Source: a virus
Lineage: Duplodnaviria > Caudoviricetes
Reading direction: 5' to 3' (one strand)
DNA: 31,075 nt
IMG/VR virus record: IMGVR_UViG_3300025127_000148
Location: 1 to 31,075 of that record
The notes beneath the pieces were generated by a model, which made no database searches, was not told the DNA's origin, and saw only the letters and a list, made by a program, of their open reading frames with translations. The translations under genes were made by a program, and so were the position numbers. Of the stretch, positions 3,420 to 31,075 are shown one piece after another; within the stretch, counting starts at the first letter, position 1, and each line of letters starts with the position of its first letter.

Positions 3420-4105
3420 TTAGGTGCTGACCAATTTTTTAATTTTTCAATTCTCTCTTTTTCTTCTTCTGCTGCTATTTTTTCTTGTTCTATTTTTTCA
3501 AATTCTTTTTGCATTGCTAATTCTTCTGCTTCATCTTTTTTCTTTCTATCTTCCATACGTTTTACATATGTATCATAGTCTGGTCTTTCATGATCATATT
3601 TAGACCATAGGGCCTCTGCTTCTTTACCTATTTTACCATCAATAGGACAAGGTGTACCTGCTTGTATCATAGATTCAAATACTCTTTCATCTTGACAAAG
3701 TATAGCAACAGCTGCAACTTTCATACCAAAGTCATTTAATATTCTAGCTAACTTTAGTCTTTCACAATTTTTGTCTATTGCATGCTTACCACCACTAATA
3801 CCTATACCAAAAGTTTGAACACCTAATGATACCCCAACTGCACAAACATCTTGTGTCATACTATTGTATGATGGCGCACCTGCACTTGGTGGAGCTGATC
3901 TAATATTAGAATTAGTTGTATTATTAGTAGTGCTATTAGAACTAGATCCAGATTGATAAGTTGTTGTAGCAGTAGATGTATATCCACCTTCAATAGCAGT
4001 ATTAGATCCAGACGTATTAGTCTGAGTTGATCCTGCTATAGCTGCAGTTGTTACACATGCAGATATTATTAATAATGTTAATATTAGTATTAGAGGGTTT
4101 TTCAT
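3416..4105 (-). CDS. Exported (possibly lipo-) protein with Ser/Thr/Asn-rich linker and four-Cys domain
   Basis: Signal MKNPLILILTLLIISAC (lipobox-like ISAC, also a possible AIA-G SPase I site); S/T/N tract; APPSA.AP...DVC...NCERLKL...GMKVAAVAILCQD...AGTPCP; charged C-terminal helix. Confidence 0.88.
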   Translation of the reverse strand: MKNPLILILTLLIISACVTTAAIAGSTQTNTSGSNTAIEGGYTSTATTTYQSGSSSNSTTNNTTNSNIRSAPPSAGAPSYNSMTQDVCAVGVSLGVQTFGIGISGGKHAIDKNCERLKLARILNDFGMKVAAVAILCQDERVFESMIQAGTPCPIDGKIGKEAEALWSKYDHERPDYDTYVKRMEDRKKKDEAEELAMQKEFEKIEQEKIAAEEEKERIEKLKNWSAPK

Positions 4106-27235: not shown

Positions 27236-27787
27236 CTAAGCAAGTTCTCCTTCAGTATCAATAGTATTGAACTCTTGTTCCATACCAGATTCTTCAGTTT
27301 CTGCCATTTGTGTATCAGGTGGCACAGTTGATTGTCCCATCTCAGTTCCAGACATATCAGTAATTAAACTTTGTACTGCTTGTGTCTCATCACCACTGTA
27401 TCTTTTTGTTGCAAAACTTTTGAACATAGATACAGGTATAATAACATTTTCTTCTTTAGGACCAGCAGCTTCTACAAGAGGAGCTAACTCTGGTGCTAAT
27501 TGGACTAAAACATTACTAACAGATGGAGATAGAACTGCAGATAATACAGCTTTATCTTCATCTGGTAAATTTTGTACTTTTGCTATTAAATCATTTGTAG
27601 GCATCTGTGTAGTATCTTGCATAGGTGCTTCTTCTTCCATAGGTGCAGATGCAGGTTGTTTTCTTTCAAATAGTTTATTCATGCCTGATAAATTAGGAGC
27701 ATTTAATTTTTTAGGTGATTCATTTATTTTACCTGTCATTGTATTTTGATCTTTAGCAACAGTGCTTTTCATATCTACTATAGCCAT
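27236..27787 (-). CDS. 183-aa acidic hypothetical protein
   Basis: TAATG-coupled at 27787; helical core flanked by low-complexity M/E/Q/T tails. Confidence 0.8.
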   Translation of the reverse strand: MAIVDMKSTVAKDQNTMTGKINESPKKLNAPNLSGMNKLFERKQPASAPMEEEAPMQDTTQMPTNDLIAKVQNLPDEDKAVLSAVLSPSVSNVLVQLAPELAPLVEAAGPKEENVIIPVSMFKSFATKRYSGDETQAVQSLITDMSGTEMGQSTVPPDTQMAETEESGMEQEFNTIDTEGELA

Positions 27788-29409
27788 TATTTTTTACCTG
27801 CCCAATAACAAATAGGTTCTAATATTTTATTATAAACTTTACCTAATAACGAAGGTTTACTATTAAACATTACATGTTTTAAATGTTGTGTTCTATGTTT
27901 TGCAAAGTGTGCACCTATTGCTTTTATAATATTACTTTTATGCATAGCTTTTACAAAAGGTTTAAATAATTTATGATACCCCTCTTGGTGTTGTATAGTT
28001 AAATATTTTTTTTGGTATATATACCATATCTTCATTGCTTTAGCCCAGTCTTGTAATCCTGTAGTTTGATACATAGCAGTACAAACTATACTTTTACCAC
28101 CGTTAGATGGTCCTCCACCTTGACCCATATAATCTGTATCTCTACCTAATCCTGTTTTACCAAAACCTGTAACATTAGTTTTAGTATTACCCATTCTTTC
28201 ATCTCTATCTTGTGCTTTACCTTCTCTGTAATCATTAAGTTCTTTTTTCATTTTCTGAGTATCATCATAAAATTTATCACCAGGACCATAACCTTTTTTC
28301 TCAATAGTTTTTTCTCTTTTAGAAACTCTTTTTGCACCAGCTAAATTTAAATTACCAAATGCAGAAACTCTATTCATACCTGCAAATAGATCTGTTGCTG
28401 GATTACCACCAATTCTACCATCACCTCTATCTGTAAAATATCTTTTATTAAAATTAACTGCTGCCTCTGTTTCATTACGAGGTTTGCCTAATTCTCTCAT
28501 TACTGCTATTCCTGGTGTTACAAAATCTTTTAATGCTGTACCGACTGATTGTACAAAAGTTTGTTTAGCAGGTACAGAAGGTTGGCCTTGTATAATTGCA
28601 TCAGGCACTCTAGGTGATATAGTACCACTAGCTAATTCTGCTTGTTTCATAGCCATTGTTTTTGATGGGTCTGCTGATATACCTAATGTATTAGAAGCAC
28701 CCATTCTTCCAGTTGGATCTAACATTTCAGGCATAGCACCTTGTGCAACTTCTGATTTATCACCAGGGAAACCTAACGCTGCTCTTTCTGATGGTTTAGT
28801 AAATTTAGTTTGATCTGTTTTAAGTTTTGGCCCTTTTAAAGTTTCTAATAAGCCTGATAAAAATTTAGGTTTTCTTTTTTCTTTTTCTGCAGCTGATAAT
28901 TTTAATTTGCTTTGCGGTGTTTGAACACTAGGTAACATATCTTGCCTTTGCAATTGTTCTTGTGATACAGTTGATCTACCAAACACAGATTCAGTTGGAT
29001 CTTTAATTCTAGTTCCTACAGCATCGTCAAATGTATCTGCATCAAATGTTCCTTTACGTTCTCCAGCTACATCTCTCATATTAGGTTTATCAAATGTTGT
29101 TTGTAAACCTTTACTAACATCTGTAGCACTTTTTAACATTTTTTCTGTAGTAAACTGATCATCTTTATCATCTTTCTTAGGTAATAAAAATGCTGCTTTA
29201 GTTTGATCTGCAGTAGTTGTACCAGTTTTATCTGCAGCTGTTTCTGTTTTTGCAGCTGTAGTTGTTGCAGCAACAGCACCTAATTCTGGTAACTGTAAAG
29301 GTGCAATTTTGTCAAACCCAGTTTCTTTTAAAACATAATTACCTTGTGCATCACGGACTATAGAAACAGTTCCGCCACCTTGTCTTTTTGAATCAAATGT
29401 TTTTACCAT
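27787..29409 (-). CDS. 540-aa largely disordered protein with C-terminal GGKSIVCTAM domain (probable virion/ejected protein)
   Basis: Low-complexity body, Gly-rich linker, then a compact basic/aromatic domain IVCTAM...GYHKLFKPFV..M...LEPICY. Confidence 0.8.
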   Translation of the reverse strand: MVKTFDSKRQGGGTVSIVRDAQGNYVLKETGFDKIAPLQLPELGAVAATTTAAKTETAADKTGTTTADQTKAAFLLPKKDDKDDQFTTEKMLKSATDVSKGLQTTFDKPNMRDVAGERKGTFDADTFDDAVGTRIKDPTESVFGRSTVSQEQLQRQDMLPSVQTPQSKLKLSAAEKEKRKPKFLSGLLETLKGPKLKTDQTKFTKPSERAALGFPGDKSEVAQGAMPEMLDPTGRMGASNTLGISADPSKTMAMKQAELASGTISPRVPDAIIQGQPSVPAKQTFVQSVGTALKDFVTPGIAVMRELGKPRNETEAAVNFNKRYFTDRGDGRIGGNPATDLFAGMNRVSAFGNLNLAGAKRVSKREKTIEKKGYGPGDKFYDDTQKMKKELNDYREGKAQDRDERMGNTKTNVTGFGKTGLGRDTDYMGQGGGPSNGGKSIVCTAMYQTTGLQDWAKAMKIWYIYQKKYLTIQHQEGYHKLFKPFVKAMHKSNIIKAIGAHFAKHRTQHLKHVMFNSKPSLLGKVYNKILEPICYWAGKK

Positions 29410-29614
29410 CTATTTTATTCCGTTTGTTCGCCTCTTCCAGGTTGAGTATTTGACGCACTAAAGCCAGCTTCCCCTGGCATCGGTACATTGCCTGTTCCGA
29501 TGTTGCCACCTCCAGCTCCTGATGGATCTGTTGGCGAAGCTCCTGGAGGTACTGGACTAGCCTGTCCCATTTGACTTTGTCCTCCAGCAGCGGCTGTATT
29601 GTTTTGATTTCCAT
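29393..29614 (-). CDS. 73-aa helical protein overprinted on the portal 3' end
   Basis: +1 frame relative to portal; amphipathic helices and MYRCQGKLALVRQILNL motif like the small gene that follows the portal in podophages; GGGA upstream of the ATG. Confidence 0.7.
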   Translation of the reverse strand: MEIKTIQPLLEDKVKWDRLVQYLQELRQQIHQELEVATSEQAMYRCQGKLALVRQILNLEEANKRNKIDGKNI

Positions 29615-31075
29615 TTGCCATTCCCATTATTTGTGCATAGATCGCAGCTTTCTCTGGATCATTAATTAATTGATCTGGATCAATATCTAAAGACTTAGCA
29701 ATTTCAGTTAAACATGTATGCCATCTAACAAAAGGTGCAAGTGCAGGATTAGCTGCTGTTTGCATAAATGTCATTAGTCTTTGAGATCTTACTTCTTTCT
29801 GCATCAAAGAAGAAGTGCCTTGAGCTTTAATCTCTAGATCACCTTGTATATGTGGAGCATCATCATTGAATTGCATGTTCCAATAAAACAATGATTGTCC
29901 TAGGGGCTTTAATAAATAGTCATCAATATTTTTAATTACTGTTTTAATACTTAAAGCTGCAGCACCCATTAGCATTGACATACCTGATGCTGTTCTAGTT
30001 GTAGATTGTACACCTGTTGCTCCATGTGAGTATGAAGGTATACCAGTTGCTTCATCAGCTAACTGTCTAAACTTATCAAACATTTGTAAATTTTCATATG
30101 CAGTATTAGGAAACTTTAATCCATGTACTGCTTGTCCTGTCTGGCCGCTTTGTCTTCTAAATATTTTACCAGGAAATACTTTCATGTCTTGTCCAGGTAC
30201 TAGCATTGTTTCATCAACATCAAATACTAAATTACCTGCAAGTGCTAAGTTATCAATAGCCATTCTTGCATGACCATTCATAACCATTTGAGAGTCTTCC
30301 ATGTTTTCTGGAATACCAATACCAAAGAATTGATATGGATTTAATTCGTATGGACAAACTAAATAAGGTATTCTAGTTGGTGTAAATGGATTTTCAACCA
30401 TTCTTAAAACTTTATTACCACATACCCAAACATTAACATGTATGTTGTCTGAATCTGCGCTGTACATTAAACCACATTCATCTGCAGTTTTTCTATCTAT
30501 TATACCCCAATATTCTAAAACTTCAAATCTATTTTTATAAATTGTTTGTATATTCTCTCTATCATACAGAGAAGATTCAAATCCTCTTGTTTGATAGTTA
30601 GGTCCCATTTGTAAACATTCCATTACAGCTTCTCTATCAAACATTGGTTTATCTGCTAGATCTTCAAACTGTGCTTTATTGTATGAGTGTCTTTGAATTA
30701 CAAAATCACAATCATCCATAGTTGTAGCATTTGGATCTGGATAAAAATCCCAACATGATACAGCTTCTATAGATGGAACAGCTTTTGTTTTAGTTGCGTG
30801 AACTCTTTCAATATTTCCTTCATCATCTTCTGCTGTAGAAAATGCATGATATTCTTTTGTGTCTGTAAATGGTCCTTTTAAAATTCCTGTACCCATCAAT
30901 GCCATTTCAAAAAATACATGACGCATAATTGTAATAGCTTTACTTTCCTCAAGCTGATCATGTATTAACTTCTGCATTTGTTCTGCAGCCATTCTAGCTG
31001 GTTCTATTTGTGGAGAACCTGTATAAGATGGACCTTCTTCAAAACCTAAATTTTCATATTCTTGATTTAGGTTTT
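29415..31075 (-). CDS. Portal protein (5' truncated by the window edge)
   Basis: Frame stays open from 30992 to the edge (..NLNQEYENLGFEEGPSYTGSPQIEPAR-MAAE); GTGILKGPF, WDFYPDP, EVLEYWG, PYELNPYQFFGIGI, ADEATGIP, RTASGMSMLM are P22/T7-type portal motifs. Confidence 0.92.
   Translation of the reverse strand, partial: NLNQEYENLGFEEGPSYTGSPQIEPARMAAEQMQKLIHDQLEESKAITIMRHVFFEMALMGTGILKGPFTDTKEYHAFSTAEDDEGNIERVHATKTKAVPSIEAVSCWDFYPDPNATTMDDCDFVIQRHSYNKAQFEDLADKPMFDREAVMECLQMGPNYQTRGFESSLYDRENIQTIYKNRFEVLEYWGIIDRKTADECGLMYSADSDNIHVNVWVCGNKVLRMVENPFTPTRIPYLVCPYELNPYQFFGIGIPENMEDSQMVMNGHARMAIDNLALAGNLVFDVDETMLVPGQDMKVFPGKIFRRQSGQTGQAVHGLKFPNTAYENLQMFDKFRQLADEATGIPSYSHGATGVQSTTRTASGMSMLMGAAALSIKTVIKNIDDYLLKPLGQSLFYWNMQFNDDAPHIQGDLEIKAQGTSSLMQKEVRSQRLMTFMQTAANPALAPFVRWHTCLTEIAKSLDIDPDQLINDPEKAAIYAQIMGMANGNQNNTAAAGGQSQMGQASPVPPGASPTDPSGAGGGNIGTGNVPMPGEAGFSASNTQPGRGEQTE

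Follow-up and report, generated by a model that had tools for sequence, protein, structure and literature searches.

The spanins of tailed phages are the nearest described counterpart of the locus studied here. According to the excerpted text of Kongari et al. 2018 (PMC6139136), spanins (lambda Rz-Rz1) occur in embedded, overlapped and separated architectures, with transitions proposed to proceed via duplication-deletion or stop-codon read-through; that text states that no spanin family combines embedded with overlapped or separated members, and reports that the part of the i-spanin encoded by the overlap has diverged. Viral overprinting, as characterised in the part of Pavesi 2021 (PMC8227390) drawn on here, yields two proteins from one DNA with the younger frame of low complexity, and our locus resembles it in both respects. 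Like the spanins as presented by Kongari et al., the portal gene and a small gene of certain marine tailed phages form a same-strand +1 nested pair that is found in three architectures. The likeness is one of gene layout only, since these are head genes and not lysis genes: instead of the spanin hallmarks (membrane anchor in the host gene, nested lipoprotein signal, lysis cassette) there is a portal and a soluble helical ORF in a head module. Unlike the spanins, one homologous pair occurs in all three layouts with one escape bracketed by the tree, and both dual-coded sequences remain recognisable after separation. Gene E within gene D of phiX174 is an example of viral overprinting; unlike that type, the nested gene here is likely old, the tail of the gene that contains it new, and the overlap appears to have been undone later. 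To our knowledge few long overlaps of the fully nested kind have been described in tailed phages, the spanins being the case studied best. A literature search by titles and beginnings of abstracts, partial in its coverage, returned no description of this locus, and the word 'overlap' is absent from the main text, as excerpted, of the HMO-2011-type phage paper (PMC9038755). What appears to be new is the occurrence of nested, partly overlapped and separate states of one pair, together with a separate clade that by sequence lies within the nested clade, with the motif kept and the linker shorter.

The window, that is the whole stretch of 31,075 nucleotides that was analysed, has a G+C content of 33% and is assigned by its portal alone to a HMO-2011-type pelagiphage (marine, SAR11-type) of the HTVC033P lineage. 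The portal matches PF23899 SU10_portal (E 5e-33) and phrog_332 (E 8e-73). The head module lies on the minus strand in the order portal, small gene, 540-aa unknown, 183-aa unknown, phrog_13678 protein and major capsid protein. HTVC033P (MZ892993) has the same gene order, a portal (gp77) 89% identical to that of the window and the same 200-nt nested ORF (82% identical), which its record, unlike our reading, leaves unannotated. The features of the locus are as follows.

29415..31073, minus strand: portal gene, HMO-2011 type, 3' 552 codons, the 5' end lying beyond the window
29622..29625, minus strand: SD-like GGGA, 7 nt upstream of the small-gene ATG, made of portal codons at the end of the core
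29393..29614, minus strand: nested small gene of 73 aa from its ATG, read in the +1 frame; belongs to an unnamed post-portal family and is predicted to fold as a helical hairpin
29415..29614, minus strand: dual-coding stretch of 200 nt, portal stop included
29529..29614, minus strand: portal linker of low complexity, for the most part shadowing the first helices of the small protein, with heterozygosity peaks at portal codon position 1
29460..29528, minus strand: portal tail motif, Asp to Phe, 23 codons, both frames constrained
29415..29459, minus strand: extreme portal tail, for the most part shadowing the last helix of the small protein
27787..29409, minus strand: next gene, 540 aa, without family match, overlapped by the small gene over 17 nt

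An initial annotation, made from the letters of the window, had described the 73-aa ORF in the +1 frame over 29415-29614 with its 17-nt overlap with the next gene, quoted a peptide from each frame and counted 35/60 G+C at 29461-29520; coordinates, peptides and composition are all present as described. The small ORF extends 22 nt beyond the portal stop. The 540-aa gene downstream has no match in Pfam, PHROG or NCBIfam; it combines a low-complexity body with a distinct C-terminal domain of about 105 aa containing Cys, Trp, His and Tyr, and its slot is highly variable among relatives.

The overlap of the portal end and the 73-aa +1 gene is real, and the two are a true same-strand gene pair. The open +1 frame by itself is weak evidence, because 56% of 100,000 synonymous resamplings of this Gly/Pro/Gln-rich tail stay open. 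What takes the ORF beyond chance is its homology to free-standing genes, combined with selection and a conserved ATG with an SD-like site. A HMM built from 15 non-nested post-portal genes only gives the window ORF 42 bits over 57 ungapped columns, in agreement with the initial annotation, according to which a small helical gene follows the portal in many podophages, and the same HMM gives the nested ORFs of HTVC103P, 104P, 033P and 115P 27-51 bits. Substitutions were compared among 41 dereplicated close relatives by pairwise NG86, which is biased in overlaps and was applied to related sequences: pN/pS in the +1 frame is 0.35 over the overlap versus 1.30 in the same frame over 299 single-coding portal codons, and portal-frame pS falls from 0.347 in single-coding codons to 0.122 in the overlap. 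The +1 ORF is intact and nested in 69/69 loci selected by portal similarity that reach the portal end (76 loci in the set, 7 without portal end; 4 further hits were counted with another set). The same holds for 117/117 loci with a detected portal that were chosen by a portal-frame pattern (120 in the set, 3 without detected portal), the loci from the separate searches being partly the same contigs. Both the frame-specific selection and the uninterrupted frame in close relatives thus agree with the hidden gene that the initial annotation had proposed. After dereplication to 60 nested loci, 59 have the ATG at the expected position and none has a +1 stop over the motif, while an SD-like 4-mer precedes 57 of the 59 nested ATGs versus 166 of 1788 (9.3%) other +1 ATGs in the same portals.

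The dual-coding locus is real and was previously unannotated. The expectation that gene callers would drop the hidden gene was correct for the GenBank records of all four cultured nested phages (HTVC033P, 103P, 104P and 115P) and incorrect for metagenome gene callers, which often do predict it (66 clusters). Metatranscriptome contigs of relatives from 4 runs in 3 studies span the stretch, and such contigs are uninformative on strand, level and frame. RNA folding gave nothing notable (z of +1.1 near the start, -1.7 and +1.2) and no excess of promoters or terminators was found.

By homology the small protein is a member of an unnamed family of post-portal helical hairpins that is usually free-standing. 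A profile of 110 members reached 1583 clusters at E<=0.001, and the AlphaFold model is a helical hairpin that has an additional short helix at its N-terminus (mean pLDDT 90.6). Homologous post-portal hypothetical proteins include HMO-2011 gp50, CRP-13 gp56, phiM6 gp11 and CHOED gp90 which, unlike the nested ORF of the window, are free-standing or overlap by <80 nt. Searches of PHROGs, Pfam, NCBIfam and PDB sequences gave no usable match, nor did the ESM Atlas with two homologues as queries. Foldseek against PDB and BFVD returned nothing at E<=0.001, the best BFVD rows being uncharacterised phage proteins of 70-75 aa, and VIA-align gave generic hairpins only (best Z 7.3). From its constant post-portal position in the head module the small protein would likely be a head-assembly accessory, and from its Gly and Pro content the portal tail would be a flexible arm carrying a docking motif. 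The phiRIO-1 gp50 gene, a post-portal gene missing from the virion protein table in the consulted portion of PMC4819975, was considered as a relative, its homology to the small family not being demonstrable (5 bits by HMM, hhalign probability 0.4%).

Three layouts occur among relatives. The nested layout is found in 4 of the 24 named phage records, partial overlap in another 4 and separation in 16, and among 120 motif-selected loci these numbers are 15, 27 and 71, the remainder comprising 2 without the gene, 3 truncated and 2 without portal hit. The nested register is fixed, Gln-Gly of the small protein being offset by one base from Pro-Gly of the portal in 267/270 anchored loci (16 more were not anchorable), and Pro-x-Pro-Gly-Glu of the portal motif coincides with Arg-x-Gln-Gly-Lys of the small protein. 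Partial +1 overlaps of about 50-90 nt between the small-gene start and the portal end recur in HMO-2011, CRP-345, CRP-1 and distant phages such as Rollin (loci L160 at 3532-3605, L162, L173, L180, L532 and L533); the small gene is unannotated in CRP-345 and CRP-1, and the annotations of HMO-2011 gp50 and of the Rollin gene use later starts. An additional short gene separates portal and small gene in CRP-3 (L167, 3626-3790), and a 564-nt gap does so in L503. Two loci (L181, L247) have the portal motif yet lack a small gene in the 700 nt that follow the portal stop, where sequence is available, possibly by loss or relocation, and in L603 and L579 the portal frame is broken in the contigs, by assembly error or in reality. 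HMO-2011-type portal loci also turn up in numerous marine MAG and SAG assemblies whose taxa are unrelated (L506-L531), likely as co-binned phage contigs, among them a Pelagibacteraceae assembly with the nested layout (L519).

One group of separate layout, hereafter the L433 group (L433, L435, L561-L566, L579 and L582), has portals close to those of nested loci, the L433 and L435 portals being 79-85% identical to that of nested L449. In a 59-row IQ-TREE phylogeny of the portal core, this group and L581 fall inside nested lineages with support of 100/100, 99/94 and 100/98, and at least two layout changes are needed; on 30 rows the AU test rejects a clade made up of nested loci alone (p-AU 9e-7). 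Escaped tails retain the whole motif or half of it and have +1 stops in 10/10 examined. The tails of L433, L565, L566 and L582 have lost the first half of the motif and kept the second, like the CHOED-like short form. Judged from these sequences, one related lineage likely went from nested to separate while keeping both.

As to which frame is older, the small gene is also found behind portals of just 24-30% identity, the printed tails of which lack the motif, and is the more widespread of the two sequences because it occurs after such distant motif-less portals. For the same reason the portal tail is likely the younger, overprinted frame and the small gene the older one, as far as their distribution tells. 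The initial annotation had the small gene overprinted on the portal, a direction that is probably the reverse of what happened. A de novo overprinted small ORF was rejected in view of its free-standing homologues behind these distant portals and the 1583 clusters of its family. Both the narrower distribution of the portal tail and its low-complexity composition, as a new frame would show, are observed: the tail has 23% Gly and 12% Pro, and its content of G/P/S/T/N/Q/A/E is 83% versus 49% in the core.

How the two came to share DNA can be read in two ways. We favour, at a level of confidence midway between belief and disbelief, that the portal was read through into an old small gene and that the pair was then repeatedly released, because release is visible in the tree and the route is mechanistically simple. 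A late merger, which we hold to be possible though somewhat less probable, would start from two separate sequences, as in roseophages; a single event of duplication and deletion in the pelagiphage lineage would have joined them, motif DNA coming to encode the small protein anew, and only the L433 group and L581 would have reverted. The distant outgroups, all of which are separate or overlap by <100 nt, agree with such a merger, and a comparable route was proposed for spanins, as the text of Kongari et al. 2018 (PMC6139136) excerpted here has it. Nested and escaped loci form one clade, weakly supported, in two FastTree trees and a quick 30-row tree, which also fits a merger, and nested DNA is like non-nested portal-motif DNA and far less like non-nested small-gene DNA (28.0 vs -1.7). 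Against it, a homology of 57 ungapped columns would need to be rebuilt on the conserved motif of another gene, the tree shows un-nesting and no recent merger, and CHOED-like small proteins group with nested ones (weak 67-column tree). The portal tree splits at depth into a five-way polytomy, in which the roseophage/HMO-2011 and CHOED-like clades stand beside three nested lineages, and a tree with roseophages arising among nested lineages, which would also argue against a merger, is not rejected (p-AU 0.21).

If the portal was read through into the small gene, its motif would have been born as a shadow of that gene, for which the nucleotides fixed by both frames are suggestive only. Compared with 15 distant small genes, the non-nested motif has its best fit at the nested register, which ranks 1/23 in all 15 jackknife runs, with p 0.003 at the register and 0.058 over all registers; against roseophage-type small genes p is 0.53-0.63 over all registers, and among the several variants of this test significance was approached only with distant small genes. 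Whole-codon DNA profiles of the non-nested motif and non-nested small genes placed the nested register at rank 8/103, which is not significant.

The escaped loci bear on how the separation was made. Both flanking genes of the L433 group are nearest to those of its nested sisters, and the free copy of this group looks like a local insertion because the downstream gene is closest to that of the nested sisters. Import of the free copy from a CHOED-like phage, followed by decay of the nested ORF, is a possible though less likely source given these inherited flanks, the direct junction of the free copy with the portal stop, and the nested proteins that were the top BLAST hits for 5/5 queries. Such an import would account for the grouping of L433-group proteins with MQM1/CHOED-type proteins (82/78), for escaped proteins' BLAST scores that are similar to the nested and CHOED-type groups, for the first long gene past the small gene of L581, which is scaffold-like as in CHOED-like loci, and for the lack of a DNA relic of duplication, none having been detected in L433 and L435. 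Escaped free proteins score 14-29 bits better on the nested than on the roseophage-type HMM, a difference whose minimum is +17 for held-out nested proteins and whose maximum is -24 for free ones. CHOED-like free proteins are about as close to the escaped proteins as nested ones are, and the 67-column small-protein tree is compatible with duplication and import alike. No locus with both a nested and a downstream copy was seen among the loci scanned. L581 may be a recombinant.

The initial annotation also allowed for a frameshifted portal isoform. A +1 frameshift fusing the portal to the hairpin would profit from an ORF that begins exactly where the portal core ends, a plausible fusion point, but is very improbable given a dedicated start site with conserved ATG and SD-like sequence, a +1 frame that upstream of the ATG is open for at most 4 codons in 54/59 loci and carries a stop directly before it in 8/59, homologues that exist as stand-alone genes, and the unremarkable RNA structure near the start (z +1.1).

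Over the dual-coding stretch the linker and the extreme tail are governed chiefly by the small protein, and the central motif is constrained by both frames. In linker and extreme tail, variation is greatest at portal codon position 1 (heterozygosity of 0.17 and 0.30), which is the wobble position of the small gene, and in the window's clade portal pN/pS is 0.85 in the linker and 1.43 in the extreme tail, the latter versus 0.21 in the +1 frame (last 10 codons examined). Over the motif both codon positions are quiet and small-gene pS is 0.126 versus 0.266 and 0.457 on the flanks. Sixteen residues of the motif are conserved at 76-100% in 92 non-nested loci, where synonymous codons are freely used and, in 77 of the 92, +1 stops lie over the motif. 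The motif codons of the 60 nested loci are locked, the central Gly for instance being GGG in 60/60. Since the motif is conserved even where its codons are free, it is selected as portal protein; the HMO-2011 motif, which lies upstream of its small gene, is identical to that of the window at 21/25 residues (eye count). The length from core to motif is 49-56 codons in nested (n=30), 34-59 in non-nested (n=54) and 32-34 in escaped loci (n=6), and linker length is set by the nested gene. The suspicion of the initial annotation that the conserved portal tail is a shadow of the hidden gene therefore holds for the linker and extreme tail and fails for the motif. A tail without any function of its own, conserved solely through the hidden gene, would suit the wobble-dominated variation and high portal pN/pS of the linker and extreme tail but is scarcely credible, given the codon-free conservation of the motif, the lowered small-gene pS over it and its survival in escaped lineages.

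We are thus fairly confident that the last 200 portal bases are selected in two frames, giving a Gly/Pro-rich tail and a likely separately translated 73-aa protein that likely acts in head assembly. Translation of the small gene would likely begin at an SD-like site and ATG of its own; both are conserved, and both are made up of portal codons where the folded core ends. Within the head, a flexible tail could present its motif as a short peptide for docking, and the hairpin could assist assembly in association with portal or scaffold, a proposal from gene position and composition to which we give an even chance. The portal frame would have been extended over the older small gene, the tail later gaining a function of its own. 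The pair was un-nested at least once within the nested clade, as placed by the tree, presumably by means of duplication; further un-nesting on the stems of the roseophage/HMO-2011 and CHOED-like clades is a possibility on which we are evenly divided.

The locus adds a missing gene to abundant ocean pelagiphages and indicates a large unnamed post-portal family (1583 clusters). Closely related sister lineages stand on either side of an escape, and the locus offers a rare natural test of how an overlap is gained and undone, in which the cost of dual coding and the release after separation are measurable in genomes and cultured phages (HTVC033P versus CRP roseophages), as is the emergence, if it occurred, of a functional motif out of a frame shadow. 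It is tentatively proposed, with slightly less than even confidence, that the motif of HMO-2011-type and CHOED-like portals was born as the shadow of an ancient head-assembly gene, became functional and was freed several times by duplication, pelagiphages having kept the ancestral nested form. If so, most descendants would carry a conserved peptide whose de novo origin is now invisible, and one gene pair would have run through the whole natural cycle, from overprinting through dual constraint to escape.
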